DNA of 64,000 nt from a virus (taxonomy: Duplodnaviria; Caudoviricetes). Positions 12,104-40,988 of the stretch are shown here, one piece after another. Numbering within the stretch: position 1 is the stretch's first letter; each line of letters begins with the position of its first letter. The position numbers and the translations under genes were made by a program. The stretch lies in the IMG/VR virus record IMGVR_UViG_3300048591_000242, positions 138,180-202,179 of that record, one strand, 5' to 3'. The notes under the pieces are model-generated. The model searched no databases and was not told the DNA's origin. It saw only the letters and a list, made by a program, of their open reading frames with translations.

Positions 12104-12124
12104 GTATGCCTGGAGTACTGTAAA

Positions 12125-12673
12125 ATGAATAGTGAAAAAACAGTTAACATGCACACGGATATAGATGTGGCTAGATACTTATTAGCTACAGAAAACGCCA
12201 AACATATGTTTCTGGCATTAAGGGAAGCCATGTCGCCCTATGGCCAAGTAGATATGACCGTACATTGTGGCATATATACCAACAATGACAATCTGCTAGC
12301 AGCCATGTACAACTTATGTATACCTCTGGATTGCGTAAGAAACAATGAGGGCATAGGCAGTATAGTGTTGACGGTAGATAATAGGATATGCCCTACCTAC
12401 AGATACGATCGTGAGAACAGAGTACTGGTGTTCGATATGGCCCATAACGGAAAACATGTTAAGGTACAAATACCGCCTATTCTAATTATGGGTATGTGCG
12501 TGCGGGATTATCCTAGCACTAGAGTTAGTGTATCTAACTATGGGATAAATGAGTTTATCTCTGTAGCCGGAGATATGGCTATTACTAAATGCCCTGAGAC
12601 CATATACAAAAGAACGTTAATAAAGGGACAGAAGAATTTACCAGATAACGTGGTTTCTATATTCAACAAATAA
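12125..12673 (+). CDS. sspB: SspB-like ClpX adaptor, paralogue 1
   Basis: IPLDCVRNNEGIGSIVLTV...LVFDMAHNGKHVKVQIPPILIMGMCVRD aligns with the SspB core (VPMEYARDGQIVLNI...VRFNARFGGIPRQVSVPLAAVLAIYARE); tail DNVVSIFNK. Confidence 0.7.
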   Translation: MNSEKTVNMHTDIDVARYLLATENAKHMFLALREAMSPYGQVDMTVHCGIYTNNDNLLAAMYNLCIPLDCVRNNEGIGSIVLTVDNRICPTYRYDRENRVLVFDMAHNGKHVKVQIPPILIMGMCVRDYPSTRVSVSNYGINEFISVAGDMAITKCPETIYKRTLIKGQKNLPDNVVSIFNK

Positions 12674-12685
12674 TGAGGTTTTACT

Positions 12686-13243
12686 GTGACTGATAATCTA
12701 CCTTACCTTGAGTGTAACACTGAGCGATACCTAGCCAGCACTATAGCGGCTAAAGATTTATTTATGCATATGCGAAGCATTATGTCCAAGTATGGTACAG
12801 TACATGCCGCTATAAACTGTGGTACCTTTGTGAGTCCAACTGAGTTTATACCGGCGATGACCAATCTTAAAGTACCACAACCATACATAGAAAATCGAAA
12901 TGGTGCCGGTGTCATGATTTTGTCTGTATCAGAAGGCTCGTGCATTCATTACGACTATGATCTGTCTAAACGAGTTTTTGTTTTTAATTTGAGTTTCGGA
13001 GGTGTAGCCACTGTAGTACATATACCGCCTATTTTAATAGTGGGTCTGTATGTTAAAGACCACCCAGCTACTGTATCTACCATATCTACATACTCACGAG
13101 ATGAGTTTATTGGGGTAGCCAACGGTATGGCAGTTGGTATATGTCCAGATGAGGTCTATAGAAATTTGTTTCTACCGGTACATGAACCTGTAGGTAATGT
13201 AGTTAGTATATTCGATAAAAGCAAGGGTAAGCCGTCTAAGTAG
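12686..13243 (+). CDS. sspB: SspB-like ClpX adaptor, paralogue 2
   Basis: VPQPYIENRNGAGVMILSV...FVFNLSFGGVATVVHIPPILIVGLYVKD matches the SspB core including FGG; tail GNVVSIFDK. Confidence 0.78.
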   Translation: MTDNLPYLECNTERYLASTIAAKDLFMHMRSIMSKYGTVHAAINCGTFVSPTEFIPAMTNLKVPQPYIENRNGAGVMILSVSEGSCIHYDYDLSKRVFVFNLSFGGVATVVHIPPILIVGLYVKDHPATVSTISTYSRDEFIGVANGMAVGICPDEVYRNLFLPVHEPVGNVVSIFDKSKGKPSK

Positions 13244-13294
13244 TATTTAACGGTACCTACGTATTGGGTAGACCCGTTTTAATAGAATGACAGG

Positions 13295-13304
13295 TATATA
13301 TTAC
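13295..13304 (+). promoter_or_regulatory. Early promoter
   Basis: AGG-TATATATTAC, CAACCAC 12 nt downstream. Confidence 0.75.
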
Positions 13305-13337
13305 CTACATGTAAACCAACCACGCTAGGATGTTATC

Positions 13338-14774
13338 ATGGAAATAAAAATGAGTGAAATTGAAAAGAATATTCTTTTCGTCACCCACAGAGGGGAGAGT
13401 ATTCGGTGCCCTACCTCCGGATACTTTAAGAAACTATCAACCACAGGCAATAGCTTTGACCCATTAAACGAATACTGGGCCACACTTAGCACGCTGCATC
13501 AAGACGCCATATATGCGCTATACGCTGAAGCCAATATGGTTATCGAGGAAACCAATAGTTTTGACAGAACTAAAGCCGATTTGACTGATATCGTAGCTAG
13601 ACTGTTTGATTTAATAGACTACGGTCATCTAACTGATTGGGTACTTAGATATGGTAAGATTTCTTACAACAAAGATATCGCTACGTCCTATAGTGGTGTC
13701 TATGAAGAAAGATTAACTTATCTAAAAGACGACTATGATGGTCTGGTTGTGCTATCCATGTTCTTTAAGATGCTTACACCTATATGGGGTTTATTCTCTG
13801 ATACTTCACCTAATTTGGATATGGGGTTTAAGGAGATAAATGCATTAGAGATGATGGATACGTCTAAGGTACATTCATTACCGGCCATGGCCAGATTAAA
13901 GGACTATTGTGAGGCATTGGTAAATAAAAACAAGAAGGGGATGACTCCTGCTATACTGGGTAGACATATTGGTACCAGTGAGGTACCTAAGTACTTTTTG
14001 GCGTTAGCCGTCGTGCGCAGGTTAGCGATAGGTGACATTAGAGACAACAAAGACACGTTGATAAAACTGGTTTATAAGTTTCTAAAGTCAAATATAGAAA
14101 ACCTTAGCAAGGGTGTCAGGGATAAGCGTGGGTACAGTAGTGACCCAGATGACCCAGAGTCAGTAGCAGAAAGATATCGTATTTCTCAGAGGGTACCAGA
14201 TAACGATATTACTACTGCCGAGTCTTATGTAAAAGACATAGCTAGGTTTGTAACCGATGTATCGCCTACGGGTAATGTAGATAAAGCTATCGCTTATGTA
14301 AACGCTATTAAAAATAGCGCTAGCTTTAGCATAGCTGGATTTCACATACAGTTCATGGGACTAGTTTGTGATAGGGTTATAAGTCCTAGGACATGCAGAT
14401 TAATGTCAAGAAATAGTTATTTAACTGTTTTGGGAGTTACCGCTGGTTGGTTATCTGATAACGGGTATCAACTACTGGCCAACATTATAATGTCGCCTAG
14501 ATATGAAAGAGACCCTGAAGCCATGCAAATGCATTCGGTATCTGGTTTTGCTTTTACTGGATTAATTAAGGAAAACCGTGAAGCCTTGGATGCTATTTAT
14601 AGCCACCAACAGCTAGACTTACAGGGTAAATCTAAGGGTAACCCTGGAGTAATGATGATTGATATGATCGTGGAAGAAATAAATTCTTACGATTGGGATG
14701 AAACGTTAGTCGTACCACAGAACATAAGGAACGACATAGCTGCACTGTTATTATACCGGGAGAACGCGCTGTGA
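13338..14774 (+). CDS. Non-virion RNA polymerase sigma-like specificity subunit (phiKZ gp68-like)
   Basis: 478 aa, helical, VAERYRISQ-type motif, early promoter, core synteny. Confidence 0.7.
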   Translation: MEIKMSEIEKNILFVTHRGESIRCPTSGYFKKLSTTGNSFDPLNEYWATLSTLHQDAIYALYAEANMVIEETNSFDRTKADLTDIVARLFDLIDYGHLTDWVLRYGKISYNKDIATSYSGVYEERLTYLKDDYDGLVVLSMFFKMLTPIWGLFSDTSPNLDMGFKEINALEMMDTSKVHSLPAMARLKDYCEALVNKNKKGMTPAILGRHIGTSEVPKYFLALAVVRRLAIGDIRDNKDTLIKLVYKFLKSNIENLSKGVRDKRGYSSDPDDPESVAERYRISQRVPDNDITTAESYVKDIARFVTDVSPTGNVDKAIAYVNAIKNSASFSIAGFHIQFMGLVCDRVISPRTCRLMSRNSYLTVLGVTAGWLSDNGYQLLANIIMSPRYERDPEAMQMHSVSGFAFTGLIKENREALDAIYSHQQLDLQGKSKGNPGVMMIDMIVEEINSYDWDETLVVPQNIRNDIAALLLYRENAL

Positions 14775-16267
14775 GCTTAACAAATACCATAGAGTTAGTA
14801 AAGGCCTCATTCATAGGTGTACCCTGTGAGGCAAACATGCACTATCGCCCATACAAGGCGACATTAGATACCGCTACATTAAATGAGGTAGCAGAAACTA
14901 CCAGAGGTGGCACTAATATAGGGTCCAATGCATTTAGCGGTGTAGCTGGCAGAATCTTAGCGCCATCGAGTCAGTCTATGGGGGGTCTAATGATTCCATA
15001 CGGCTGGGATCAGCGACGCTACAGTGTTGTACTGGAGTTTGATGTGATAACGCCATTTGCCGTCGAGCGCTCTATTATAACTGGATATACCGGTTATGAT
15101 GAGATCACTGCAACTGGCCATTTAGATCCAAATATGCCCATATTTGTAAACAGTCACACCATAGCTACCGCTACTGCATTTAAGGATCAAATGGGTATTC
15201 GTCGTAACGCCTATAGAAGTAATGGGGCCAAGCAAGTACTTAGTGGTGTACAGTACATTAACAATACTGACGGTAGTGTTAATACGGCTAGTACACCAAT
15301 GCGTCCCTCAGATGCTTTGTTATACAAACAAAGACAAGAGATGTGTCTGCTAAATAACGTTGTAGACGCTCGCTCTATGTTGGGAGATGGATATTTGTCA
15401 TCTAACCGAGATAACGTTATTGGCAGTAAGTATTTATCTAAGGTCTGTATGGGCTATAGACAGGCGGCCTTATCCAATAGCGAGTATGCTGATACCGATG
15501 CGGTTATTTATGGAGATGCTGCTGAGGTATACGGTGTAGCTGAAAGCAACATAAACAAATCTTTGTTATTCCAAAGACTGAAGGCTCTTACTAGTTACGG
15601 ACATAACAACTCCATAACTGTAGGTGAATTGGCTAGCGTATGGCCACAGATTCATGACGATACCACTAAAACGGTTATTCACATGACTCCTGGGCTACCA
15701 GAGACTACAGCTAACTGTAACAACCACTGGGGTGGTGCTATAAAGGAAACTGCATTGGCATATATGCTTTGTCAATCAGTACCTGCATTGATGAGTACTT
15801 TACTATTTAGTGAGTTCTCTTTTGCTATGGATAACAAAACTATGGACGGCAGCGTACGTATAGCTCTATTAGGCATGCCTAAGTTCATTGTACCGATTCC
15901 AGATGACTTACATCGAATCCAGGCTATGGAGAGTAATCTAGTATCTGACGTAGCCGCACAAATTACTTCTAGTGGTGTAACTGATTTTGATGTAGTTATG
16001 ACCTGTAGGATAATCGGTAGCAATCAAGTTACCATTTCTGTCAACGGAGGGGAAAGAATACCCTATAGCGCTCCGGCTTACTGTGATGCCATATACACAC
16101 CTGTAATGGGTGAGAGCGCCGATTCATTAGTTAATTTAGGTAATGACATCGGTTATATGCTACATGGTATATTTGGAGACAGCCACAATAGGTCCAATAT
16201 ACAGCAGCCTGCGGTAGCGTGGGATGACATTAACGATACACCCGACATATACCTAGGGGGAATGTAG
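14771..16267 (+). CDS. picA: Probable nuclear import factor PicA/Imp1 (phiKZ gp69-like)
   Basis: 498 aa, GTGA-coupled directly after the gp68-like gene as in Chimalliviridae; call mainly by synteny and size. Confidence 0.62.
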   Translation: MSLTNTIELVKASFIGVPCEANMHYRPYKATLDTATLNEVAETTRGGTNIGSNAFSGVAGRILAPSSQSMGGLMIPYGWDQRRYSVVLEFDVITPFAVERSIITGYTGYDEITATGHLDPNMPIFVNSHTIATATAFKDQMGIRRNAYRSNGAKQVLSGVQYINNTDGSVNTASTPMRPSDALLYKQRQEMCLLNNVVDARSMLGDGYLSSNRDNVIGSKYLSKVCMGYRQAALSNSEYADTDAVIYGDAAEVYGVAESNINKSLLFQRLKALTSYGHNNSITVGELASVWPQIHDDTTKTVIHMTPGLPETTANCNNHWGGAIKETALAYMLCQSVPALMSTLLFSEFSFAMDNKTMDGSVRIALLGMPKFIVPIPDDLHRIQAMESNLVSDVAAQITSSGVTDFDVVMTCRIIGSNQVTISVNGGERIPYSAPAYCDAIYTPVMGESADSLVNLGNDIGYMLHGIFGDSHNRSNIQQPAVAWDDINDTPDIYLGGM

Positions 16268-17640
16268 TGAAACCTATAGTAAAGTTCTATAAACAATTTT
16301 TACAAGACTTAGGCCTTACCATTGGTGACGATGATGAGGTGATGTTGGTGGTAAAGGGACATGACCCTATACACATTAAAGTGAACGTTAAACGGGGTAA
16401 AGTATTTAAGCAGTTGCCTTTGTACTTACCCACTGACAGACATTTAAACGTGGATAATGGGGATAAGGTCTATTTTCATCCAGCAGGGGAGAGTTGTTCT
16501 CGCGGGCAAAGTGAGGTATTTAATGCTACACTTAAAATTGCTACTGAACGTATGTTTGCAGCAGTTACCTGTACAGTAGATAGTTTGCTTAAGCTGTGTG
16601 CCGATAGGGAGGCGCATAGTAACTCTAATGTTACTGTAGAGGCAGTGGAGCTATTAAGAGACGTAGGGGATGTATCTAAGCCTACAGTAGAGCAGTGGAA
16701 ATCTTTATTTAAGAAGACTACTGGGTATACTGGGGAAAGACCGATTATGTCGGTAGTAGTAGGTAGAAATAAAACCATAGATAAGGTTAGTTATTCTAGA
16801 ATCTGTGGTGTGCGTTTACCTATATTAGACAGTGCTGACATGTATGACATAAAGCTAACTAAGACTGCCCAGATGGCAATACGTAAGTCATTTGATTTGG
16901 TTTTAGGTAGTGAGCCTTGTGTTAACGGTAGTAACTCTCCTACAGCACCATACTTCATGGCATTGGCCAAAACCTATCATCAAGTAATGACCAGCGTTAT
17001 GTCTGTGGTTCGTATTATAGAGCCATACATGCATGGTGAAGTTAAGTTTGATGGCCGGTGGCTAAAATCTCTGGATAAACTACATGACTGGTATAGAAAC
17101 GACTTCTATATTCAGTTAGAAGGTAATTTGGGTTTAGGTAAGACCGTAGAGGAAGAAGACAAACCTGCAAGTAATACACAGGCTCCCCAACGTATCCTTA
17201 CTGAAGCTAGACAGGACTCTAGTGAATCCAGTGTGCGTCCAGTACAAATGCCTACACAGCAGCACGTGGAGCCTATACAGGTACCGGTAAAAGAGCCTGT
17301 GCCAGATGACGGCATACCGAGATTCAAACCACCCACTGGCGCTACGTTGCCTCCTCCATTACCTGCATACCAGCAATATGGTTACGGGCAACAGCCACAA
17401 AACAACGATACTTACTTTGATAGCCGTACCGGTACATACCGACCCAGGGGCAGCAACAATGTGGCGCCTAATCAGCAGCCGCAGTACCAGCAACCCCAGC
17501 AATATCCACCTGGGTACGCTCCACCACAACCACAGTACGTACCACCACCGACCTATCAACAACCACAACAGCCTATGGGTTATCCACCACAAGTGCAGCC
17601 TATAGCGTATGACCAATACGGGAGACCAATATACAGGTAA
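16267..17640 (+). CDS. Conserved phiKZ gp70-like protein with Q/P/Y-rich disordered tail
   Basis: 457 aa; YFHPAGES motif; C-terminal ~90 aa low complexity (QQPQYQQPQQYPPGYAPPQPQY). Confidence 0.6.
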   Translation: MKPIVKFYKQFLQDLGLTIGDDDEVMLVVKGHDPIHIKVNVKRGKVFKQLPLYLPTDRHLNVDNGDKVYFHPAGESCSRGQSEVFNATLKIATERMFAAVTCTVDSLLKLCADREAHSNSNVTVEAVELLRDVGDVSKPTVEQWKSLFKKTTGYTGERPIMSVVVGRNKTIDKVSYSRICGVRLPILDSADMYDIKLTKTAQMAIRKSFDLVLGSEPCVNGSNSPTAPYFMALAKTYHQVMTSVMSVVRIIEPYMHGEVKFDGRWLKSLDKLHDWYRNDFYIQLEGNLGLGKTVEEEDKPASNTQAPQRILTEARQDSSESSVRPVQMPTQQHVEPIQVPVKEPVPDDGIPRFKPPTGATLPPPLPAYQQYGYGQQPQNNDTYFDSRTGTYRPRGSNNVAPNQQPQYQQPQQYPPGYAPPQPQYVPPPTYQQPQQPMGYPPQVQPIAYDQYGRPIYR

Positions 17641-17650
17641 TGGCATAAAG

Positions 17651-17681
17651 ATACTCACTCCCACTAAAAGGGAGTGAGTAT
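17651..17681. terminator. Bidirectional terminator between convergent genes
   Basis: ATACTCACTCCC-ACTAAAA-GGGAGTGAGTAT 12-bp stem. Confidence 0.82.
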
Positions 17682-17702
17682 ACTTATCGCTCTATTTTAT
17701 TT

Positions 17703-18047
17703 TTATAATCTACCACTAGCACTAAGGTGTCTATCCAGAATACCAGTTATGGTGGAAGGTCTAATTATTTTGATTTGCATGTTTGGGTCTAGATAGTCGC
17801 CACTGGAATGTAATTCATTTACTCTTAGAGTTATCCAATGTAAATGCTCTCTTACACCTAGCTCTATAAGTAATCCAGTAAAGTCACCTTTGTATTTACT
17901 GTACTGTCTGCCACTAGGAGTCTCTACTCTTTCTATGCCACTTACACGAATTAAATCTAAATGATCTTCTATTACTTGACGAAATTCAGGACTATGAAAC
18001 TCAACAGGGCCCATATCCCTGGCTGTTCTTATAATAGACATTGTCAT
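17703..18047 (-). CDS. Conserved small protein, possible baseplate wedge (gp53/LysM-like)
   Basis: 114 aa, minus strand between the gp70-like and RNAP genes; HWITLRVN motif; function tentative. Confidence 0.45.
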   Translation of the reverse strand: MTMSIIRTARDMGPVEFHSPEFRQVIEDHLDLIRVSGIERVETPSGRQYSKYKGDFTGLLIELGVREHLHWITLRVNELHSSGDYLDPNMQIKIIRPSTITGILDRHLSASGRL

Positions 18048-18100
18048 GTTGTTATACCCTAGATTATGATTTATATATTATCGTCTAACCGATTGTTAAG

Positions 18101-18110
18101 TATATATTAC
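18101..18110 (+). promoter_or_regulatory. Early promoter
   Basis: TATATATTAC, CAACCAC 12 nt downstream, AGGAG SD. Confidence 0.75.
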
Positions 18111-18142
18111 TTAAATGTAAGACAACCACTATAAAAGGAGAA

Positions 18143-20236
18143 ATGTTCATGGGCAAACGTACCCTAACACTAGAAGAAAGAAAGGTACCCCTAACCAGAA
18201 GAACACATGGCACCATAGCGACTTTATCTAGTACCACTACGTTCGATAGTGCCTCCAGGGTACAAATGGCTAGTGTACAGGCAGGTCAAGCCCTAGTGCC
18301 ACACAAGTCAGATATACCAAGAATGTTACCTGGATTTGAAGATCAGTTAGCCAAATACACTTTTGGCGTAAAAGCACCAGATGATCTTAAGATTGTCTCA
18401 GTAATAAGTAAGTATAGCGGGGGCTTAGGCGCACATGCCATAAAGTCAAACCCCCTCATAACGGTAATTTATGTAAGTCTGAATACTGGGGAATATGGTT
18501 GCTTCCATATAGAGCAATATCAAAACCAGAGTGAGCGAGTACATGAGACTTTTGGCTTCAAATACAAACTTACTCCTAAAGCCAAGAATTTACACGTTAA
18601 CATGTGTTTAGAGAAAGGTGAAGTACTGTCTATCTCTCCCAATGTAGATGAACATGGATGGTACGCCACTGGTATATCAGCTAACGTAGCATACATGTCT
18701 ACTCCAGCTACTACGGAAGACGGATTTGAGATAAGTGATAGTCTATTGGAGAGAGCTAAGCCTACAGCTACTGGTTCTCGTGTAGCAGAATGGGGTAAGA
18801 AGTGTTATCCACTAAACATTTACAATGAGGGCGATGACAAGTATCGCCCTTTCCCAGAGATAGGAGACCCGATTCGTGAGGATGGTCTGGTGTACGCCAT
18901 GCGTGACTATGATGACGTTTTAGCTGGCTTAGACATGACCAACAAGTCTCTTTGTAAGGTGGACTTTGTACACGACGAGTGTGTCTACGGTAAACCAGGG
19001 GCTAAGGTATTTGATATAACTATCTATACTACTACCAATGAAGGTAGACGTAGCCATAACACTCCATCTGGCATGGAAAAGCTTTGTGAGAAATACTCAA
19101 AGCAGCACAGTCAGTATTATGAAAAGATACTGGAGTGCTATGCTAGCATTAAGCGAGTAACTAATGGGGATTTTAAAATAACCCCAGAATTACAAAACTT
19201 AATAGTAAGGGCTAACGGGGACATGCCTAACGTAGTGGTACGTAGACTGGAGGACAAGATACGTAAGAAAAATAGTATTATTAAAACTTGGCGAGCTAAC
19301 CCTATAGATGAGTGGCGAGTAGAGGTGTTCTATGAGTATTTATTCCCTATAGGGGAAGGGGCTAAGTTTAGTAATCGCCATGGAAGTAAGGGGGTTATTT
19401 GTCGAGTCACAAAATCTGAAGATATGCCTGTAGATGCCTTCGGTAACAGAGTAGATATAATTATCTATTCTAAAGGTTCTATCTCCAGACTAAACCCCGG
19501 GCAGTTTTATGAGCACTTCATAAACGCGTGTTCTAGAGACGTCACTCTGGACATAAAGGCCATGATAGGTACTGGTGATAGAAAGGGAGCACTGAAGCAT
19601 CTGTTGGAGTATTTACGCATTGCATCGCCTAGGTCATACGAGTTAATTGACTTTGATAATCAGGAGGAACTGGATGACTTATTGGATAGAGCGTGTAAGT
19701 ATGGTATTTATGTATTCGCGCCCTCTGACGATAAGGATTTAGGCATAGCTACGTTCTTTAAGCTAATGGAGTTTCGACCACCAAATAAATCACAAGTAAC
19801 ATATCGTGATGTATCTGGTAGGTTAGTTACTACAGTAGAACCTATTTTGGTAGGGGAAGAGGACGTTATTGTACTAGATAAGCTAGATCATAAACCGATG
19901 GCTGTATCTGGTATAAGAAGACAACATCATGGTTTCCCTGCTGTAGAGAATAAGAGTACTAAACATAGTACTCCTAGTAAGGAGCAGCCACCTAAGATTA
20001 TCGGTGAGTCTGAGGCTAGGACTGCGGCTGCCGTAATGGGTGGGGATGCAGTATCTGAGTTGTTGGATGTTACTACTAATCCAGAAACACACAGACGTAC
20101 AGCGGCTGCTATATTCGAAGCAGAAAATCCAATGGACATAGCGGATTTGGTTGATAGAGAGAATCCTTCTACTGGTGGTAGAAGTATACAATTTATTAAG
20201 CATGTGCTTAGCTGTGCTGGCTATACGATAAAATAA
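18143..20236 (+). CDS. Non-virion RNA polymerase beta C-terminal subunit (phiKZ gp71-73-like), uninterrupted
   Basis: GAKFSNRHGSKGVI, SRLNPGQFYE and KIIGESE rpoB motifs. Confidence 0.92.
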   Translation: MFMGKRTLTLEERKVPLTRRTHGTIATLSSTTTFDSASRVQMASVQAGQALVPHKSDIPRMLPGFEDQLAKYTFGVKAPDDLKIVSVISKYSGGLGAHAIKSNPLITVIYVSLNTGEYGCFHIEQYQNQSERVHETFGFKYKLTPKAKNLHVNMCLEKGEVLSISPNVDEHGWYATGISANVAYMSTPATTEDGFEISDSLLERAKPTATGSRVAEWGKKCYPLNIYNEGDDKYRPFPEIGDPIREDGLVYAMRDYDDVLAGLDMTNKSLCKVDFVHDECVYGKPGAKVFDITIYTTTNEGRRSHNTPSGMEKLCEKYSKQHSQYYEKILECYASIKRVTNGDFKITPELQNLIVRANGDMPNVVVRRLEDKIRKKNSIIKTWRANPIDEWRVEVFYEYLFPIGEGAKFSNRHGSKGVICRVTKSEDMPVDAFGNRVDIIIYSKGSISRLNPGQFYEHFINACSRDVTLDIKAMIGTGDRKGALKHLLEYLRIASPRSYELIDFDNQEELDDLLDRACKYGIYVFAPSDDKDLGIATFFKLMEFRPPNKSQVTYRDVSGRLVTTVEPILVGEEDVIVLDKLDHKPMAVSGIRRQHHGFPAVENKSTKHSTPSKEQPPKIIGESEARTAAAVMGGDAVSELLDVTTNPETHRRTAAAIFEAENPMDIADLVDRENPSTGGRSIQFIKHVLSCAGYTIK

Positions 20237-20284
20237 ACCATAAACTATCTAGTACTACAGCCATACTTTGGAGACAGTACTAGA

Positions 20285-20294
20285 TATATATTAC
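20285..20294 (+). promoter_or_regulatory. Early promoter
   Basis: AGA-TATATATTAC, CAACCAC 12 nt downstream, AGGAG SD. Confidence 0.75.
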
Positions 20295-20331
20295 CTTTTG
20301 AGTATACAACCACTAGTTAGGAGAAGAATAA

Positions 20332-22305: not shown

Positions 22306-22363
22306 ACTACAGAACGATAGGGTACAGCCGTGCCCTATCCGACTACATGGGAGTATATGGATA

Positions 22364-22651
22364 ATGAATAGACTAGAACATTTGATGGTTATATTCATGG
22401 AAGAATGTGGCGAGGTAGCGCACGAAACATCTAAGTTAATGCGTTTTGGTGTTAATGAAAGACAAAGTGATAAACATCTGACTAACATAGAAAGATTATC
22501 TATTGAGTTTAGTCAACTTATGGCTATGCGCGAAATGTTGGCTGATGAGGGTATAGACATTCAAATATATCCGGCATATCTGGCTGAGAAGAAACTGAAG
22601 GTAGAAGATTTTCTTGAGTACTCCAGACAGATTGGTACGCTAGTGCCATAA
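22364..22651 (+). CDS. MazG-like nucleotide pyrophosphohydrolase
   Basis: MEECGEVAHETSK...EFSQL acidic helical motif; GGAG SD favours ATG 22364 over the track start 22289. Confidence 0.65.
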   Translation: MNRLEHLMVIFMEECGEVAHETSKLMRFGVNERQSDKHLTNIERLSIEFSQLMAMREMLADEGIDIQIYPAYLAEKKLKVEDFLEYSRQIGTLVP

Positions 22652-22654
22652 TGG

Positions 22655-22939
22655 ATGATATGTAACTTAAGGGGGTATGTATTTTATTATATATCTGTAT
22701 TAACATTTGTTATAAGGCTTAGTGATATGATGTCGTGGCTAGCCGGACAGGGAATGTTAGTTATTAGTGTGGCAAGTATGTTTATTGTACTTTTAGGTAT
22801 GTTAGTTCTGGTAATACTTCTATTTAATATATTAAATTATTTAGAAAAGGATGCTAAGGGCAGTTACAAGTACAGTAGTGGGTATTCGCTGTTTAATAGT
22901 AGAAGTAATAATTCAAGTGACGGGGAGAGTAGAAAGTGA
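22655..22939 (+). CDS. Small membrane protein
   Basis: Long hydrophobic segment MLVISVASMFIVLLGMLVLVILLFNIL; true start may be the internal ATGATG. Confidence 0.55.
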   Translation: MICNLRGYVFYYISVLTFVIRLSDMMSWLAGQGMLVISVASMFIVLLGMLVLVILLFNILNYLEKDAKGSYKYSSGYSLFNSRSNNSSDGESRK

Positions 22940-23115
22940 AGAAAAGTAATTTAAAGGTACGACCTAATCAGAAGGCTAAGGCTGTAGCACGTAGAAAGAA
23001 AGGTATAGCTAAGCGTAATTCTCGAGGTGGGCAGCGACCGACTACACTAGCGAATCTACCACCAGAGATTCAGAAGATGGTGGCAGACATGCAGTTAAAA
23101 CAAAAAGCCCAATAA
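22936..23115 (+). CDS. Small highly basic protein (59 aa), not in the ORF track
   Basis: GTGA overlap, GGGGAGAG SD; MKKSNLKVRPNQKAKAVARRKKGIAKRNSRGGQRPTTLANLPPEIQKMVADMQLKQKAQ; followed by a terminator. Confidence 0.65.
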   Translation: MKKSNLKVRPNQKAKAVARRKKGIAKRNSRGGQRPTTLANLPPEIQKMVADMQLKQKAQ

Positions 23116-23135
23116 TTAAGGCTAGATTTAAGTGA

Positions 23136-23163
23136 CTAGAGAGAGGATAAAACCTCTCTCTAG
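23136..23163 (+). terminator. Terminator hairpin followed by TATGCT
   Basis: CTAGAGAGAGG-ATAAAA-CCTCTCTCTAG. Confidence 0.8.
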
Positions 23164-23222
23164 CTATGCTCTATTTTTTGAATGTAAGTTATGATATGGA
23201 TTCTATTTTTAGGAGAAGTATC

Positions 23223-23588
23223 ATGAAACCGCATAACTGGATGATGGTTAATTGGAAACCTATGTATGCGTTAATCTATTCTATAGTCTGTCTTGCTGAT
23301 TTTGTAGTCTTTCCAGCCTGGGTAGGCATACATCGAGTTAACTATTTTGAACTTTTAGAGGCAGTTAGTAAGTTTGATCCTAAGGTACAAGCGGAGCTTA
23401 TACACGTCGCTATGAAGAGTTGGGAGCCATTTACGTTAAAAGGTACCGGTCTATTTCATCTAGCTTCCGGGGCACTATTAACAGGCGCTGCCATTACTAA
23501 AGGACCAGACAGTAATGCGGTCTTTACTGACAAAGGTCTTAAGTTTGCACGTAGAAAAGAAGATAGAGTAAAGGTAAGTGTAGAGTAA
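23223..23588 (+). CDS. Holin-like membrane protein (3TM/GTA holin family)
   Basis: WKPMYALIYSIVCLADFVVFP...WEPFTLKGTGLFHLASGALL matches the family pattern; AGGAG SD before ATG 23223. Confidence 0.7.
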   Translation: MKPHNWMMVNWKPMYALIYSIVCLADFVVFPAWVGIHRVNYFELLEAVSKFDPKVQAELIHVAMKSWEPFTLKGTGLFHLASGALLTGAAITKGPDSNAVFTDKGLKFARRKEDRVKVSVE

Positions 23589-23594
23589 ACGTTC

Positions 23595-23622
23595 TAGGGT
23601 ATGGGTTTAGGCCTGTACTCTA
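23595..23622 (+). terminator. Terminator-like hairpin followed by TATGCTGT
   Basis: TAGGGTATGGGT/GCCTGTACTCTA stem with G-U pairs. Confidence 0.55.
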
Positions 23623-23661
23623 AACGCTATGCTGTAGTTTAAATATTAATCAGGGTAGAGA

Positions 23662-26136
23662 ATGGTATACGGCCCATATATAAAGGCCCTATGCCATTTA
23701 GCGTTCGCAGACATCCAAGGAGTTCCCATGGTACGTTATAAGTTCTCGGTATTTTCACATGGATTTACCGTTAGTCTTTTCTATGTAAACGACAAGCAGG
23801 CTATCCTTGAGTTTAGTAAAGACCTAGCTACATTTGAAGAAATGTGGGTACCCAAGCTACGTAGAAAAATAAGAAAGGTAAAGTCTGTGTTTGCAGCAGC
23901 TAGTATGGATAGAATGGAATATAGTTTTCTTATAGCTGACTTTGTACCTTTAATAAAATTCTTAAAGGAAAGAGGCTATACCGATGCGGATATGTCTATA
24001 TATAAACATAACGCCTCAGAGGGTATGCCTATTGAGATTGAATTGGGGGATGGAGTGGCTCCTAAAGATCAAGAACAAAGAGACGTAGTTGAGTTTATCA
24101 ATAGTCCAGACAAAACCAATATTGTTTTAAATCTAAGAACAGGTGGAGGTAAAGCACAACCTTTAGCTTCTAAGATTAAGATACCGGGTGGTTGGAGTAC
24201 TATGGGTGAGATGGAAGTAGGTAAAATTATAACTGCTCCAGACGGTACCCCCACTAAGGTAACCGGTGTACACCCTCAGGGGTTAAAGGGTTGTTATAAA
24301 TTAACTTTTAGCGACGGTAGAAGTTGTGAGGCTGACGGGGAACATTTATGGCGAGTATATGTGAAGGGAGAAGAACTTACTATAGATACCGCTGAAGTAC
24401 ATGGCTTGGTAGGTACAGGTAACGTACTGACCATACCGCTACCTACATCTGAGCACATATCGGAAGTAGAGTTACCCATGGACCCATATGAGCTAGGAAT
24501 TGGTTTAGGAGCTATGGATAATAACCATAAACTACCTACTGGTATAGTGGATTTAGAGGGATATACTCAGCTAAATGGATTAGCTTATGGCGAATATATC
24601 CCTAAACTATATCTACATGCTTCTACCACACAAAGACTAAATTTAGTACGTGGATTAATGGATGCTTGTGGTCACACTGTAACGGACGGCTCTGTTTACT
24701 TTACCTCCAATACCTATACCCTGGCAAAGAACCTTCAATATTTAGTTAGATCACTAGGAGGTTGTGCTAGCTTAACCACCAATACCACCAACAGGTTTGT
24801 AAGAGGGGCTATAAATAGAACTAGCTCGAGCTATAGGGTCTATGTAGAGTACCCTATTGTCACTGAGTTATATAGTTGTAATAGAAAGAAAACCAACTGT
24901 ATGTCTAGAGGCAAATACTTAAATAAGGTAGAGTGTCGTATAGTGAATGTAGAATACATAGGTAGAAAGGAAACTCAGTGTATCTCTGTAGATCACCCAG
25001 ACAAGCTTTACATTACTGATGACTTTATAGTAACGCATAACACGTTTTTGGGATTAAACTCCATAGCTAACTTTAAAGTACGCACGGCATTGATAATGAA
25101 TGCCGGGCACTTTAAGACATGGCAGGATTCCATGTCGTGGGTATACAAGGACGAAAAAAACTACTGTATAGTTAGGGGTAGAGATAATCTTAAACGGCTT
25201 ATAGAGCTATCTATAGCTGGAGAAAATGAGTATAAGCTTATCTATATCTCCATAGCTACGCTTAGAAAGTATATTACTGACTATCTAGCCACAGGGGAGA
25301 CTATAGAGGGGGTACATCCTAGAGAGTTATTTAGTGTATTAGGGGTAGGTTATCGCATAGTAGATGAGGCACATCAATCTATACATGCGATAGCCATACA
25401 AAACATTTTTACTCACGTAAACAAAACACTTTACTTATCTGCTACTTTAGTAACGGAAGATCCGTTTCTACAGAAACAGTATAAGAAAATGTTTCCTTTA
25501 GAAGATCAGTTTAAGAAAGGAGTAACTAACAAACACGCTCGAGGTATTAGTATTACCTATAGGGTAAAGGATAGGGATAAGATTCGCTGTACAGGGGGTA
25601 AAGGCTATAGTCATGTTGTTTATGAACATTGGATTATGTCAAATAAACAAAGACTTAGTAATTACATAGAGATGATAGAAAGTATTTTAACTGAATCATT
25701 CATAAGTGTAAGGGAAGGGAAACAAAAGGCACTTATCTTCTGCAGCACCACTGAGTTATGTAAGATAGTGGCAGATCAGCTAAGAATAAGTTATGGTGAT
25801 AGATTTACCATATCAGATTACGTAGCCAGTCACGATCCGTCTGTACTACACGACAACGATATAGTGGTATCTACACCACTATCGGCAGGTACTGGTGTAG
25901 ATATAGAAGACCTAAGAGTAGCCATATCTACTGTAGCCGTAAGATCCATTCAGCTTAACCAGCAGATGGCCGGGCGATTACGTCCGCTACGTAATCATCC
26001 AAATGTAACACCGGATTACATCTGGCTAAACTGTGGAGATATACCACAGCACTTGCAGTATAACTCAGCTAAGATGGAGCAGTTAGGAAACCATACCAAA
26101 GAGATTAAGTATACCTTTTATAACACTGAAATATAA
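23662..26136 (+). CDS. SF2 DEAD/H-like helicase (phiKZ gp75-like) containing an intein
   Basis: Walker A TGGGK|T split by the intein, VDEAH, LSAT, GTGVD and QMAGRLR motifs. Confidence 0.9.
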   Translation: MVYGPYIKALCHLAFADIQGVPMVRYKFSVFSHGFTVSLFYVNDKQAILEFSKDLATFEEMWVPKLRRKIRKVKSVFAAASMDRMEYSFLIADFVPLIKFLKERGYTDADMSIYKHNASEGMPIEIELGDGVAPKDQEQRDVVEFINSPDKTNIVLNLRTGGGKAQPLASKIKIPGGWSTMGEMEVGKIITAPDGTPTKVTGVHPQGLKGCYKLTFSDGRSCEADGEHLWRVYVKGEELTIDTAEVHGLVGTGNVLTIPLPTSEHISEVELPMDPYELGIGLGAMDNNHKLPTGIVDLEGYTQLNGLAYGEYIPKLYLHASTTQRLNLVRGLMDACGHTVTDGSVYFTSNTYTLAKNLQYLVRSLGGCASLTTNTTNRFVRGAINRTSSSYRVYVEYPIVTELYSCNRKKTNCMSRGKYLNKVECRIVNVEYIGRKETQCISVDHPDKLYITDDFIVTHNTFLGLNSIANFKVRTALIMNAGHFKTWQDSMSWVYKDEKNYCIVRGRDNLKRLIELSIAGENEYKLIYISIATLRKYITDYLATGETIEGVHPRELFSVLGVGYRIVDEAHQSIHAIAIQNIFTHVNKTLYLSATLVTEDPFLQKQYKKMFPLEDQFKKGVTNKHARGISITYRVKDRDKIRCTGGKGYSHVVYEHWIMSNKQRLSNYIEMIESILTESFISVREGKQKALIFCSTTELCKIVADQLRISYGDRFTISDYVASHDPSVLHDNDIVVSTPLSAGTGVDIEDLRVAISTVAVRSIQLNQQMAGRLRPLRNHPNVTPDYIWLNCGDIPQHLQYNSAKMEQLGNHTKEIKYTFYNTEI
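24154..25041 (+). mobile_element. Class 3 intein (296 aa) with LAGLIDADG-type endonuclease remnant
   Basis: Starts AQPL (Ala1), block B GEHLW, block F TQCISV, block G IVTHN followed by Thr+1; W-C-T signature; RGLMDACG motif. Confidence 0.9.
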
Positions 26137-26140
26137 ACCC

Positions 26141-26166
26141 AGGACTAGGGGATATCCTCTAGTCCT
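26141..26166 (+). terminator. Terminator hairpin followed by TATGCTGT
   Basis: AGGACTAGGGG/CTCTAGTCCT stem then TTTTATGCTGT. Confidence 0.75.
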
Positions 26167-26193
26167 TTTATGCTGTATATTGGAGAATTAATT

Positions 26194-26862
26194 ATGATAT
26201 CAATTTGTTTTAATAATAAGATGGTGGCTACAGACTCATTGCACCCAAAAACACCTATAGGGGGTAAAAACTATGGCGCCATATTTACCACGAAATGTGG
26301 AAAATTAAACGGCAACAAAATAATTGCTGTTGCATGCTGTGGAAATATCGTATTAGCTGGCCAGCTACTATACTCATATTTAGGTGACGTAACGCTGTAT
26401 AATACACCTGGAAATGAAGAGGATTTTTCTGTGTGGATCAGTAGAACCTATAAAAGGCTGTTAGGATTTGTCGATAACAGCGAAGTTGTAGTTTTCAGTA
26501 AGGGTACAGAAGGTACAGTTATACATACTTTTGGCATAAGTAGAAACGGTATATCTACGATTAAGGAAATACCTATGACTGAAGATGATATTGGTGTCTT
26601 AGACACATGTATTTATACCTCTGACGATCTAGACGAATATTGCGATAGTAAAGCCAACGTCAAATTACCAACCAACCCACTGGATAGGATGTGGGTTTAT
26701 TCTAAATACCACCAGGGTCGTAATCCTACTATCACATATCTAGAATTTGATACTATGGAACTTAAAACATACTCACCCACACCCGCCATTAAAAGGAAAT
26801 TAACTAAACTTGCAAAAGATACCCTTGAGTTTAGATTAGCTATAATAGAAAATAGAATTTAA
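26194..26862 (+). CDS. Hypothetical protein, possible HslV/proteasome-like Ntn fold lacking the catalytic Thr
   Basis: GGAG SD before ATG 26194; MISICFNNKMVATDS...KIIAVACCGN resembles the phage MTTIAxDGKxLAADS...GxAG family. Confidence 0.4.
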   Translation: MISICFNNKMVATDSLHPKTPIGGKNYGAIFTTKCGKLNGNKIIAVACCGNIVLAGQLLYSYLGDVTLYNTPGNEEDFSVWISRTYKRLLGFVDNSEVVVFSKGTEGTVIHTFGISRNGISTIKEIPMTEDDIGVLDTCIYTSDDLDEYCDSKANVKLPTNPLDRMWVYSKYHQGRNPTITYLEFDTMELKTYSPTPAIKRKLTKLAKDTLEFRLAIIENRI

Positions 26863-26949
26863 TCATGTATTGTATTATATGTAAGTTGCCGTGTCTTAAA
26901 TGCTTTATCGAGTATTTCTAGCAAACGAGACAATAGCACATAACCCGTT

Positions 26950-26977
26950 CTATGGCTAGCTTTAGTGCTAGCCATAG
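26950..26977 (+). terminator. Terminator hairpin
   Basis: CTATGGCTAGC-TTTAGT-GCTAGCCATAG 11-bp perfect stem. Confidence 0.7.
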
Positions 26978-27018
26978 ACACCCTTTATACCGCTTTTTTA
27001 TTTTTGGGGAATGCTGTA

Positions 27019-28041
27019 ATGTATACAGAAATCGTAGCAGAAGAATTAGAATTAGATGCAGCATTGGACTGTTGCTTGGTAAAGTCTAGACTGGTTATGG
27101 GGCTAGAGGATATATTTGAAAGTTTACCTACAGACTGTGACATGGGTAAAACGGTATTGGCTGTGGCGGCAACAAACACTGGCAATACACCCACATATAG
27201 TGCAGAAGGTATTTCCGATTTCCTCGCACAACTGTGGGAGGGGATTAAGAATGTAATGTCTAAGATCTGGGAAAACATTAAGAAATTCGGGGCATGGCTA
27301 CGTGCTGGCGTGTTAAGATTGTTTGGTATGTCCAAAAGTATAAAAGAAGAGGCGGATGGTAAACTTGACTTGGTAGGTCAGATAAAAGCGGAACAGTTAC
27401 AATTTCTTAAAGGGATGGCTGCTTATGACGATGGTATACGCAATGCAATGAATTTAAGTGAGGGTAGAGTGGGTGCCATTATAGATGCTGTTGATGAATT
27501 CAGTAAGAAAGAAATACCTACTACAGAAGAAACTATGGCCAATGCCAGGGCTTTTTTGGATGCTAAAAGAGCAGCAAAGGATGCTAAAGCTATTACCGAT
27601 AAACTGGCCATGGGGGAAATAGAAGTGACATCCACTAAAGATCCAGAATCTGGGGAAGAGACACTGGTTGGGTTTAATTATGTACCTAACAAACCAGCCA
27701 AGGACAGCGATAAGGTTACTAAAATAACCGGTAAGGATATTTCTAAAATGGCTGGAGAAATATCTAAGACAGAAAGTAAGGTCTTAGATATGACTAAACG
27801 ATTAACGGACACCAAATGGGCCGAGGATGCCATTAAGAAAATGGACTCAATGATACGTAGACTGGGTAGTGCGCCGGAAGGTAAAGTAAAACGCTACGTC
27901 GCCAGAAAATCCAGAGAACTATCTAGGGCCATCCAAACAGAAATAAAGCTCAATAAAATAATAGCCGATGACCTAAAAAAGACACTGGATGCATCCATTA
28001 GTGGTTTGGATGGGGCTCTTAAGTCACTCAGCAACAAATAA
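27019..28041 (+). CDS. Internal head protein with prohead-protease cleavage site, paralogue A
   Basis: Acidic propeptide then YSAE|GISDFLAQLWEGIK, typical of the phiKZ gp93-family S/A/G-x-E sites; start refined from 26965. Confidence 0.72.
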   Translation: MYTEIVAEELELDAALDCCLVKSRLVMGLEDIFESLPTDCDMGKTVLAVAATNTGNTPTYSAEGISDFLAQLWEGIKNVMSKIWENIKKFGAWLRAGVLRLFGMSKSIKEEADGKLDLVGQIKAEQLQFLKGMAAYDDGIRNAMNLSEGRVGAIIDAVDEFSKKEIPTTEETMANARAFLDAKRAAKDAKAITDKLAMGEIEVTSTKDPESGEETLVGFNYVPNKPAKDSDKVTKITGKDISKMAGEISKTESKVLDMTKRLTDTKWAEDAIKKMDSMIRRLGSAPEGKVKRYVARKSRELSRAIQTEIKLNKIIADDLKKTLDASISGLDGALKSLSNK

Positions 28042-28072
28042 TAGCCACCAGTAAACTTTGAGGAATGCCGTA

Positions 28073-29077
28073 ATGTATACAGAAGAATTAGAATTAGATG
28101 CAGCATTGGATGACTGCATCGCCAAGGCCAATTTAACTATCGGCCTGGAGAGTGTATTTCCAGATTTACCAGAAAATAGTAAGCTAGGTAGAAAGGTTTT
28201 AGAGGTAGCTTCCATGCATACCGGCATTACACCTACATATAGTGCTGAGGGTATAGGTGACTTTTTAATTAATGTCTGGGAAGGCATTAAAAATGTAATG
28301 TCTAAGATCTGGGAGAGTATTAAGAAGTTTGCTAAATGGGTAAAAGAGTCCATTGGCAATATGTTTGGCAAAATTGACGATAAAAGAATTGATTCAATAG
28401 CCGACAGCGATGTAGTTGTTGAAGTAGAAGAAGCTGCTGAGTTACCAGATCTTGCTAAACTTAAAAAAATGAATGAAGACGTTCTCTATGAAGGTGACGT
28501 TGAAAAGCAAATTGATGCTTTAGAGAAGGTAGATGAAGATCTTACCGATGACGTAGCTGAAGTAATAGAGGCCGGTACCGCTGAAGTAGATAAAGGTAAG
28601 GTAAAAGATCTTAATGAATTCTTTACTAATAACCAGGTAGTAATTGAATCTACTATTGACCCGCACAGTGGTAAAGAAACCAGAAATGCGGTTACTGTTG
28701 TGCCGTTAAACAGAAAAACCAATACGGTTAAAATTAAACGTATGAGTGGTAAGGATTTGGCCAAGATGGCTAAGGACACCAAGTCGCTACAAAAGGATGT
28801 AGAAGACGCAGTGGAAAATCTTACCGACACTAAATGGGGTGAAAAGCGTTTAGCCGATTTGGATAAAATCATTAAACGCATCAGTAAGGCGGGTACCTTA
28901 AAAGCTAAGAGTGTAGTAAAGAAACAGGCTATTACTCTTAGCGGTGTAGTGCGGGATAACCTTAAGGTAAAAAGAGCTATGGCTCGTGACCTATTAGAGT
29001 CATTAGAGGCCCGTATTAAAATAATTGATGGCGCCATTAAGGCTATGGAAGCTGCTGAAAAAGCCGATAAAGAGTAA
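28073..29077 (+). CDS. Internal head protein, paralogue B
   Basis: YSAE|GIGDFLINVWEGIKNVMSKIW; near-identical N-terminus to the upstream gene; GAGGA SD. Confidence 0.72.
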   Translation: MYTEELELDAALDDCIAKANLTIGLESVFPDLPENSKLGRKVLEVASMHTGITPTYSAEGIGDFLINVWEGIKNVMSKIWESIKKFAKWVKESIGNMFGKIDDKRIDSIADSDVVVEVEEAAELPDLAKLKKMNEDVLYEGDVEKQIDALEKVDEDLTDDVAEVIEAGTAEVDKGKVKDLNEFFTNNQVVIESTIDPHSGKETRNAVTVVPLNRKTNTVKIKRMSGKDLAKMAKDTKSLQKDVEDAVENLTDTKWGEKRLADLDKIIKRISKAGTLKAKSVVKKQAITLSGVVRDNLKVKRAMARDLLESLEARIKIIDGAIKAMEAAEKADKE

Positions 29078-29083
29078 CGCATT

Positions 29084-29572
29084 ATGAAATATATTCCGAT
29101 TTTTGATGATACTACGGTAGGTTCTGTATTTGCTGAGCTTTTGGCCTGTCAGAGTGAAGGGGAGACTGAGGCTACTTTAATCTTCAGTGCCCCTGATATG
29201 GGTATGTATATAGGTTTGGCCTTTAGAGACCTTTTATATACCTTTAAGGACACTCTTGCGCTTACGGCGGTAGCCCACATACCCCCTAACCTAAATGAGC
29301 TTGTAGCGATTACAGGGTTGCCTGTAGAGCAGAGAAAGATTACTAAGTCAAATCTAGTAATCTTTGTAAAAGAAACCTGGTTTATCGAAGGCTCTGTTTC
29401 TGAGCAGTACATTACTCATTCAGAAAAGCTTTTAGTAGAAAATAAAATTGTAAAACTAATAAGCGAGTCTTCTAAGCTTACCGAAGAAAACATAAACAAC
29501 CTAATTAAAGACGGTAAGGTTGTTCATGCTAAGGATGCTATAGAGGCAGGGTTATTTGGGAGTACTGTATAA
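29084..29572 (+). CDS. Catalytically inactive ClpP paralogue (ClpR-like)
   Basis: DDTTVGSVFAELLACQSE...GLAFRDLL...HAKDAIEAGLFGSTV follows the ClpP fold end to end, with no Ser at the nucleophile elbow (AHIPPN) and no His (VIFVKE). Confidence 0.72.
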   Translation: MKYIPIFDDTTVGSVFAELLACQSEGETEATLIFSAPDMGMYIGLAFRDLLYTFKDTLALTAVAHIPPNLNELVAITGLPVEQRKITKSNLVIFVKETWFIEGSVSEQYITHSEKLLVENKIVKLISESSKLTEENINNLIKDGKVVHAKDAIEAGLFGSTV

Positions 29573-30069
29573 TGGCTACTAAAAGAATACTTTACATTAC
29601 CGATGACATAGCTTTAGAAAACGGCTATGAGGTAATTATAGGTTTGCGTAAGCTAGAGGCAGAAGACCCTATCTCCCCTATAGTTTTGTTTATAAATTCA
29701 TACGGTGGCAGAGTAGACGTATGTCTGGCTATAGTAGACGTTATGAACGATCTGTCGTGTCCTGTATATACCGTGGGATACGGTCAGGTTATGTCAGCAG
29801 GTGCCTTTATTTTAGCAAACGGCTCTAAAGGTAATAGAAGCTTAGCCCCTAATGCCAGAGTACTACTACATCACCCTAACGGCAATAACGTACTGGGAGA
29901 TACAGACACCGGCATGGCTGTATTCTTAGCCTATCGTGATATGGTAGATGTATTAATAGCAGAAGCTTCTGAAAGAAGTATAGAAGAGGTATCTTCTAAG
30001 ATGTCTACTGACTATTATTTATCTGCTACAGAAGCTGTAGAATTTGGTATAGTAGATACTGTTTTATAG
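29572..30069 (+). CDS. clpP: ClpP serine protease
   Basis: LFINSYGG, QVMSAGA (Ser), LLHHP (His), STDYYLSATEAVEFGIVD (Asp); TAATG coupling to the upstream paralogue. Confidence 0.92.
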   Translation: MATKRILYITDDIALENGYEVIIGLRKLEAEDPISPIVLFINSYGGRVDVCLAIVDVMNDLSCPVYTVGYGQVMSAGAFILANGSKGNRSLAPNARVLLHHPNGNNVLGDTDTGMAVFLAYRDMVDVLIAEASERSIEEVSSKMSTDYYLSATEAVEFGIVDTVL

Positions 30070-30077
30070 CGTATTAG

Positions 30078-30110: not shown

Positions 30111-30136
30111 ATGATGTTGTTTAGGTATTAGTAAAA

Positions 30137-40972: not shown

Positions 40973-40988
40973 ATAAGCGGCATAAAAG

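Follow-up and report, generated by a model that had tools for sequence, protein, structure and literature searches.

What might a nucleus-forming phage do with parts of a Clp protease when it encodes no unfoldase to drive them? The question is raised by a stretch of 64,000 nucleotides, here called the window, which makes up the final 64 kb of the 202,179-bp IMG/VR virus record IMGVR_UViG_3300048591_000242; positions below are those of the window unless the genome is named. The window encodes a ClpP-family peptidase (P0002) translationally coupled to a catalytically dead ClpP-fold paralogue (P0001), and, elsewhere, two proteins with a predicted SspB fold (P0003 and P0004). A sequence-only reading had combined these genes into one linked proteolysis toolkit that supplies adaptors and a custom peptidase barrel to the host unfoldase, an interpretation that we consider an over-reach. 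The explanation that we favour, tentatively and at slightly less than even confidence, is that of two separate, lineage-restricted accessory modules, both derived from Clp components: a ClpR/ClpP-like peptidase that works independently of an unfoldase, and a set of divergent SspB-fold adaptors for host ClpX.

The active subunit P0002 (165 amino acids; 29572..30069, plus strand) is by sequence a member of the ClpP family (MEROPS S14). It matched the Pfam profile CLP_protease (PF00574) with 135 bits against a cut-off of 20.2 (E = 3.3e-39; 136.5 bits in the genome-wide search) and solved bacterial ClpPs with E = 5.6e-25, at an identity to E. coli ClpP of about 34%. Residues S75, H100 and D147 occupy the alignment columns of S97, H122 and D171 in E. 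coli ClpP and are unchanged in six of six members of the clade, and the handle region, through which the two rings are joined, has kept its full length. The protein had been described as an intact ClpP, which is correct for the Ser-His-Asp triad but not for the N-terminus. P0002 aligns to solved ClpPs only from their residue 26-29 on (residue ~26 of mature E. coli ClpP), the active copies of all six clade members start at strand beta-1, and the open frame upstream of the P0002 start has room for only about 12 codons. Taken together, the late start of the alignment and the short upstream frame show that approximately 25 residues are missing, comprising the N-terminal axial loops and helix A, which provide the pore gate and the unfoldase contact.

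The presumed docking surface has diverged as well. In E. coli ClpP, we take residues L48, F49, F82, F112 and L114, following the ADEP/IGF literature, to be the pocket that receives the IGF/LGF loops of ClpX and ClpA. In the six active subunits, the L48 column holds R/D/E/E/E/E and the F82 column D/S/R/K/R/T, and small or polar residues predominate in the columns of F112 and L114; the hydrophobic pocket defined by these positions is not found in P0002. Since the loops and helix A are missing and the pocket has polar or charged residues, it is doubtful on sequence grounds that host ClpX docks on the phage ClpP in the canonical way, and with it the proposal of a barrel customized for the host unfoldase. 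Nor does the phage bring an unfoldase of its own. The two ends of the record, when compared, share a 127-bp repeat, so that the assembly is closed and a gene absent from the record is absent from the whole phage. The profiles AAA_2, AAA, Proteasome and ClpS had no match anywhere in this closed genome, which extends the earlier observation of a window without ClpX and ClpA to the entire phage and also to HslU and ClpS; AAA_2 had no match in four related Vibrio phage genomes either. A host enzyme could still serve as the partner. However, because the axial loops and helix A are lost and the docking pocket is not kept, a barrel made of these subunits would be ungated and unfoldase-independent, its substrates being peptides or unfolded chains that it cleaves with no AAA+ unfoldase docked.

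The second ClpP-fold protein, P0001 (162 amino acids; 29084..29572, plus strand), had been taken for a dead, ClpR-like paralogue coupled to ClpP, and the analysis bears this out. On its own, P0001 matched CLP_protease weakly (E = 0.0023), and a search for its relatives returned only one 98%-identical copy. A profile of six orthologous paralogues matched solved ClpPs with E = 1e-9 over positions 17-157, nearly the full length, and hhalign gave a probability of 94% for the match between the paralogue family and the active ClpP family. By these profile comparisons P0001 is a homologue of ClpP in fold. Its triad columns (Ser, His, Asp) hold Asn, Val and Gly; at least two triad residues are lacking in each of the six paralogues, and none keeps the triad. 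The N-terminus begins even later than that of the active ClpP. At the nucleotide level, the stop codon of P0001 and the start codon of P0002 share one base in a TAATG overlap that can be read directly in the sequence. From the gene coupling, and from co-inheritance in seven genomes or contigs, we infer that P0001 and P0002 co-assemble in one barrel; the translationally coupled dead and active subunits of this first module (29084-30069) would then build a mixed core of the ClpR/ClpP type. Complex prediction for the two proteins gave a score of 0.16 compared with a mark of 0.34, a value that counts neither for nor against binding.

The pair is kept in the present phage, in the Vibrio phages pir03, Yong XC32, sm033 and BONAISHI, and in the metagenomic contigs L009 and L050/L051, and the stop/start overlap is conserved in these four Vibrio phages and in the contigs. 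All four Vibrio phages encode chimallin, and in each of them the pair is located in the polymerase/replication block, downstream of the helicase and of the genes for nvRNAP beta/beta'. Sequence comparison thus identifies the dead/active pair as a conserved module of one chimallivirus subclade. Outside this subclade the arrangement was not seen: an IMG/VR scan with P0002 found nothing, and each of the 33 IMG/VR ClpP loci retrieved in the alignment A3 search had a lone ClpP from an unrelated phage, without a gene for a dead paralogue next to it. A side observation concerns the residue before the catalytic Asp of P0002 (window ~30007-30012), which is Thr in the present phage, Gly in L009 and Arg in the four Vibrio phage ClpPs; an Arg beside the catalytic Asp is presumably the ring-ring "oligomerisation sensor" of ClpP.

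Some of these genes have been named before. BONAISHI ORF86/87 were annotated as "Clp protease subunit" and ClpP (GenBank; PMC6207643) and pir03 ORF127 was listed as ClpP (PMC7765460); both papers mention the genes solely in tables. For certain jumbo phages of the phiKZ group, Iyer et al. 2021 proposed that ClpP is a peptidase probably aimed at the host (PMC7824862). The ClpR/ClpP-like pair is an already known, unstudied feature of a chimallivirus subclade, and the earlier remark that no description of such a combination in nucleus-forming phages was known is outdated (PMC10299810, PMC6207643, PMC7824862).

A truncated subunit with a dead partner could also be directed against the host protease, by mixing with or stacking on host ClpP rings and blocking or retuning ClpXP/ClpAP, so that phage proteins are shielded. 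The full-length handle region would permit ring joining, the dead subunit is retained in seven of seven genomes or contigs, and the putative sensor Arg is replaced in the present phage and in L009. We nevertheless regard this explanation as very improbable. The triad of the active subunit is strictly conserved, which would be needless for a pure inhibitor, and the identity of only about 34% to E. coli ClpP makes mixed rings unlikely.

The genomic surroundings of the pair suggest a different connection. Hairpins at 26141-26166 and 30076-30107 enclose five genes: an orphan, two paralogues that resemble internal head proteins (IP-like), the dead paralogue and ClpP. The IP-like genes, both on the plus strand, are located at 26965..28041 (phiKZ_IP family; weak match to Pfam PF12699, E = 0.005) and 28058..29077 (a paralogue of the former), and are the only two members of their family in the genome; homologues in L009 (15827-16822) and L050 (2747-3706) carry PF12699. 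The family displays an invariant Y-S-x-E-G followed by WEGIKN..KIWE, approximately 60-80 residues from the N-terminus. Y-S-x-E-G fits what we take to be the S/A/G-x-E sites cut by gp175-type proteases, and from its sequence is likely a prohead-protease cleavage site preceding a conserved amphipathic segment. With R for the dead and P for the active subunit, the gene order is IP-IP-R-P in the present phage, IP-R-P in L050 and R-P-IP in L009, and the IP gene and the ClpR-like gene overlap by ATGA in L050 and are separated by a gap of 7 nt in the present phage. An IP-like gene is present in the pair's hairpin-bounded unit in three of three close lineages (the present phage, L009 and L050) despite the rearranged order. 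This linkage, having survived rearrangement, is a hint, and no more, that in this sublineage the pair acts late or in connection with the head. Under the two-module explanation, the pair would be co-transcribed with the internal-head-protein genes in the present phage and its two closest relatives, and its role may be tied to the internal head proteins or to the late phase, for example in clearing or trimming fragments of propeptides and internal proteins.

The same gene arrangement could be taken a step further, to a pair that is assembled or packaged with the internal head proteins, which it would either process or accompany on ejection into the next host. The common unit in all three close lineages and the tight spacing of the IP and ClpR-like genes speak for such a head-associated protease, as do the matches of P0002 to PHROG head-maturation-protease families (E = 8e-16, weaker than the match to Pfam CLP_protease) and the loss of N-terminal sequence, given that non-canonical N-termini are common in many unrelated phage ClpP-like proteins. 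The genome, however, encodes a canonical prohead protease, a homologue of phiKZ gp175 at genome positions 98432-99091 (38% identity, E = 7e-39), to which the ClpP pair is unrelated; ClpP is therefore not needed for prohead maturation, which agrees with the prior assessment that it is probably not the prohead protease. Furthermore, the invariant S-x-E site of the IP-like proteins is of the kind that a gp175-type enzyme cuts, no N-terminal propeptide was seen on the sequences of P0001 or P0002, and the pairs of the four Vibrio phages sit by themselves behind the helicase in the polymerase/replication block. We therefore consider a head-associated protease distinctly unlikely.

The second module (12125-13243) consists of two adjacent plus-strand genes, coding for P0003 (182 amino acids; 12125..12673), which ends in the conserved NVVSIFNK, and P0004 (185 amino acids; 12686..13243), which has a GTG start with GAGG 8 nt upstream. 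The two proteins are 38% identical to each other, and a third homologue, P0007, occupies the matching syntenic slot on contig L008/L009. Sequence profiles stayed below threshold. The Pfam profile SspB (PF04386) reached 13.9 bits on P0004 (E = 0.057) against a cut-off of 27 and had no match to P0003 or P0007, and PHROG 8945 ("SspB-like") gave sub-threshold E-values of 0.002-0.007 (0.007 for P0003); in the genome-wide search the E-value was 0.02. The structural comparison upheld the earlier description of the two proteins as SspB-like, despite these sub-threshold profiles. An AlphaFold2 (AF2) model of P0004, built from the three sequences P0003, P0004 and P0007, had a core pLDDT of 70-83. The top 13 Foldseek matches of this model were all SspB (E = 2e-5 to 6e-4), and VIA-align superposed it on SspB with Z-scores of 11.3-11.8 and a root-mean-square deviation of 2.5-2.8 Å over 104-112 residues, which is almost the whole domain. 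Alphaproteobacterial SspB orthologues came next, with Z around 6, and the nearest unrelated fold reached Z 3.2. Feature and structure matches in the ESM Atlas likewise led to SspB clusters. Based on the model, the assignment of an SspB substrate-binding-domain fold is sound.

Behind this domain, residues 137-185 form a tail that was modelled with low confidence. NVVS[I/L] is conserved in this tail and lies between 3 and 14 residues before the C-terminus. SspB is a dimer that recognizes ssrA-type degrons and the N-domain of ClpX, and the end of its flexible C-terminal tail carries L-x-V-V-K, which we take to be the ClpX-binding motif, and the overall architecture of the model makes contact of the phage proteins with ClpX plausible. 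Each protein begins with a helix, continues into a beta-sandwich and finishes in a poorly ordered tail with NVVS[I/L]. In line with the role proposed for gp039 of Erwinia phage RAY, the two may act in the cytoplasm on host ClpX, either as tethers or as competing anti-adaptors. The family has three known members, P0003, P0004 and P0007. An exhaustive HMMER search with P0004 against 1.8 billion representatives returned only its own fragment, its paralogue and P0007, and alignment A1 of the family found nothing in the IMG/VR scan and nothing in the metagenome scan. The best-supported interpretation of the modelled fold is that P0003 and P0004 represent a new, very divergent branch of phage SspB-fold adaptors.

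Do the two modules belong together? The SspB-like pair and the ClpP pair lie 16 kb apart, each in its own hairpin-bounded unit. The four complete Vibrio phage genomes that have the ClpP pair contain no member of the SspB-like family. Conversely, an SspB-like gene is carried by the RAY-like Erwinia phages (17 records), and no ClpP was found in RAY. Co-occurrence of both modules is limited to the present phage and L009, with L050 being too short to tell. This distribution fits independent accessory genes that met by chance in one sublineage, and the co-occurrence of clpP and sspB expected of a single linked system fails in the four Vibrio genomes and in RAY. In an integrated system, the SspB-like proteins would tether substrates to host ClpX, which in turn would feed the phage ClpR/ClpP barrel and thereby reprogram host proteolysis. 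It is true that every part but the unfoldase is found in one genome, and that with no phage unfoldase the host enzyme would be called for. Yet the axial loops and helix A are absent from both subunits, the pocket residues of the active subunit are polar or charged, and the two sets of genes are separated both along the genome and across phages. For these reasons we judge an integrated system to be unlikely.

Several observations weigh against the two-module explanation and should be considered with it. The choice of docking-pocket residues follows the ADEP/IGF literature, and the argument from pocket loss is weaker to that extent. The dead paralogue is hydrophobic at the L48 position in five of six copies and at the F112 position also in five of six, and judging from these residues a one-sided, ClpP2-like docking face on the dead subunit is conceivable; in mixed ClpP1P2 cores, for instance, just one of the rings docks the ATPase (PMC6889138). 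For the adaptors, the tail peptide NVVS[I/L] differs from the canonical L-x-V-V-K. The SspB-like genes and the ClpP pair do occur together in the present phage and in L009, as an integrated system would have it. Most phage ClpP-like proteins are head proteases, as reflected in the PHROG matches, and in the gene-context comparison the IP-like gene was not in the pair's unit in the four Vibrio phages.

A further possibility joins all the parts in one pathway of new design. Here, the SspB-fold proteins would form a hetero-dimer that picks out proteins of the host or the phage by means of the NVVS[I/L] tail and passes them to a host ClpX that is docked in a non-canonical manner, or directly to the ungated barrel that is co-produced with the internal head proteins. 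We consider this improbable. If true, it would mean that proteolysis in the infected cell is re-aimed without a phage-encoded unfoldase.

The hairpins that delimit the two units belong to a larger family. Stems of 11-14 bp with a TATGC[C/T]GTATTT-like tail within 0-5 nt were found in more than 40 copies genome-wide, with examples in the window at 60-135, 12075-12112, 26141-26176, 30076-30120, 30667-30712, 40960-41045, 46800-46880 and 61625-61700. The SspB-like unit is opened by a terminator-type member of this TATGC-tail family with a 14-bp stem and a GTATGCC tail (12075..12112, plus strand). The five-gene unit is opened, after the helicase, by a hairpin with an 11-bp stem and the tail TTTATGCTGTAT (26141..26176, plus strand) and closed by one with a 13-bp stem and a T-rich tail (30076..30107, plus strand). 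Between convergent genes, the TATGC-type tail flanks both sides of one hairpin, and the combination is therefore at least a phage-specific terminator signature. The TATG of the tail equals the core of the phiKZ late promoter, and the hairpin with its tail may also be a restart site. That this element is simply a late promoter of the phiKZ type, preceding each of the two modules, was considered as the sole reading and rejected, given that the tail flanks hairpins of convergent genes.

A second recurrent word, TATATTAC, is located 38-52 nt upstream of many plus-strand genes genome-wide and matches what we take to be the phiKZ early-promoter consensus. In the window it occurs at 1287, 7690, 13297, 18103, 20287 and 30139. 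The distance is 40-45 nt to the gene at 13338 and to both nvRNAP genes, and approximately 130 nt to the genes at 7822 and 30271. The copy at 30139 follows just after the hairpin that closes the ClpP unit, and none was found in front of the SspB-like pair or of the ClpP unit. Matches to sigma-70-type promoters were rarer than in shuffled sequences (34 versus 56) and were disregarded; such a deficit is expected because the phage has its own polymerases.

The first gene of the five-gene unit encodes the orphan, an open reading frame (ORF) of 222 amino acids (26194..26862, plus strand; 230 amino acids if read from 26170) with GGAG 8 nt before the ATG at 26194, and a candidate for a proteasome/HslV-like fold. 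It had no match in Pfam (including PF00227), PHROG, PDB sequences or the phage database and no homologue beyond its own record, and phmmer against the PDB gave noise only. The N-terminus reads M-I-S-I-C, without a Thr, and the AF2 fold obtained without an alignment (pLDDT 36) was not used. The one positive result is from ESM Atlas features, which score 0.95 against clusters annotated in part with PF00227 and make an HslV/proteasome-like protein a lead only. RAY gp116, assigned to the "HslUV family" in the literature, was rejected as a counterpart, as it is an HslU-like ATPase. In the gene-context comparison the orphan gene was absent from L009 and L050, and it is therefore not part of any conserved system.

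By its gene content the phage is a chimallivirus, with a chimallin homologue at 1768-3681 (PHROG 4795, E = 1.8e-37), split genes for an RNA polymerase (RNAP) of the multisubunit type, and the gp175 homologue described above. Judged by the RNAP beta sequence, its nearest cultured relatives are the Vibrio phages vB_pir03, C-ZP2022, Yong, sm033 and BONAISHI (34-37% identity). Aragorn found no tRNA or tmRNA genes in the 202-kb genome. Directly before the five-gene unit lies a helicase gene (23662-26136), the product of which comprises 824 amino acids as compared to 462 in pir03, with a weak LAGLIDADG_3 match in mid-protein (Pfam E = 0.009); the homologues in L009 (859 amino acids) and L050 (778 amino acids) are long too. 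The length and the LAGLIDADG_3 match are consistent with an intein. At 3756-6066, an RNAP beta fragment (PHROG 2987, E = 1e-112) is followed directly by an ORF for an HNH endonuclease (PHROG 59), consistent with an intron-borne homing endonuclease.

How do the two modules compare with known systems? Nucleus-forming phages compartmentalize the infected cell, and their control over protein turnover inside it is poorly understood. The closest counterparts of the first module are those of BONAISHI (ORF86/ORF87), vB_pir03, vB_VmeM-Yong XC32 and vB_VpaM_sm033, which have the same module in the same position after nvRNAP beta/beta' and the helicase. As in the present phage, the gene for a ClpP-fold protein without the triad overlaps that of an active ClpP with a shortened N-terminus, with identities of 28-33% for ClpP and 12-23% for the paralogue. 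The Vibrio phages differ in that they have no SspB-like gene, and no IP-like gene in the unit. The phage ClpP-like head maturation proteases (PHROG 94, 2976, 133 and 1684) share with P0002 the ClpP fold of a serine peptidase and, in many cases, a non-canonical N-terminus, and they work without an unfoldase, as the phage pair probably does. They are longer, however, judging by their profiles of 284-668 positions, whereas P0002 is a stand-alone protein of 165 amino acids that has a dead-paralogue partner and a gp175-type protease elsewhere in the genome. Phage ClpP-like head proteases are typically encoded by one gene within the head module, in many cases as a fusion with a scaffold domain.

For the second module, the comparison is with SspB of E. 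coli and H. influenzae (1OU9, 1OX9, 8ET3). The P0004 model shares the helix and the beta-sandwich, with Z 11.8 over about 110 residues, followed by a tail. The phage proteins differ in their low identity of approximately 15%, below the Pfam threshold, in the tandem arrangement of their genes, and in carrying, instead of L-x-V-V-K, the peptide NVVS[I/L], which in two of three members is not located at the very C-terminus. Among nucleus-forming phages, an SspB-like ClpXP adaptor has been published for RAY (Erwinia, Agricanvirus), namely gp039, a protein located in the cytoplasm (PMC10299810). Unlike P0003 and P0004, gp039 scores above the Pfam cut-off for SspB (E = 1e-6) and has LTVVK as its last residues, and tblastn detected no similarity between it and P0004. 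RAY also differs from the present phage in that it has no ClpP but has the HslU-like ATPase gp116. The SspB-fold pair would thus extend the single published case of a ClpX-adaptor look-alike in chimalliviruses to a very divergent family. Since the modules are found apart in other phages, each is testable on its own, and cultured relatives exist for this purpose in pir03 and BONAISHI (Vibrio) and RAY (Erwinia).

Among cellular systems, bacterial ClpP (E. coli 1TYF; H. pylori 2ZL0) shares with P0002 the fold, the family, the Ser-His-Asp triad and the full-length handle. In contrast to the bacterial enzyme, P0002 lacks mature residues 1 to ~25, the positions of L48, F49, F82, F112 and L114 are not hydrophobic, and the phage has no gene for a cognate unfoldase. 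Active and divergent or inactive paralogues side by side, as in the phage pair, are also seen in the ClpP/ClpR of cyanobacteria and plastids and in the ClpP1P2 of mycobacteria and Chlamydia, and the presumed co-assembly of P0001 and P0002 follows this example. The likeness is one of analogy and not of orthology, the phage paralogue having arisen within or before the phage clade. Moreover, the cellular mixed cores retain their N-terminal loops and dock ClpX or ClpC (PMC6889138, PMC6773864), whereas the phage pair has no loops. The ungated ClpP with its dead partner, and the recurrent tie to internal head proteins, are in our view the most noteworthy parts of this locus. ADEP-class drugs create an unfoldase-independent state of ClpP artificially; a ClpP without gate and docking surface, which an entire subclade has retained alongside its dead partner, would, if true, be a natural counterpart of that state.

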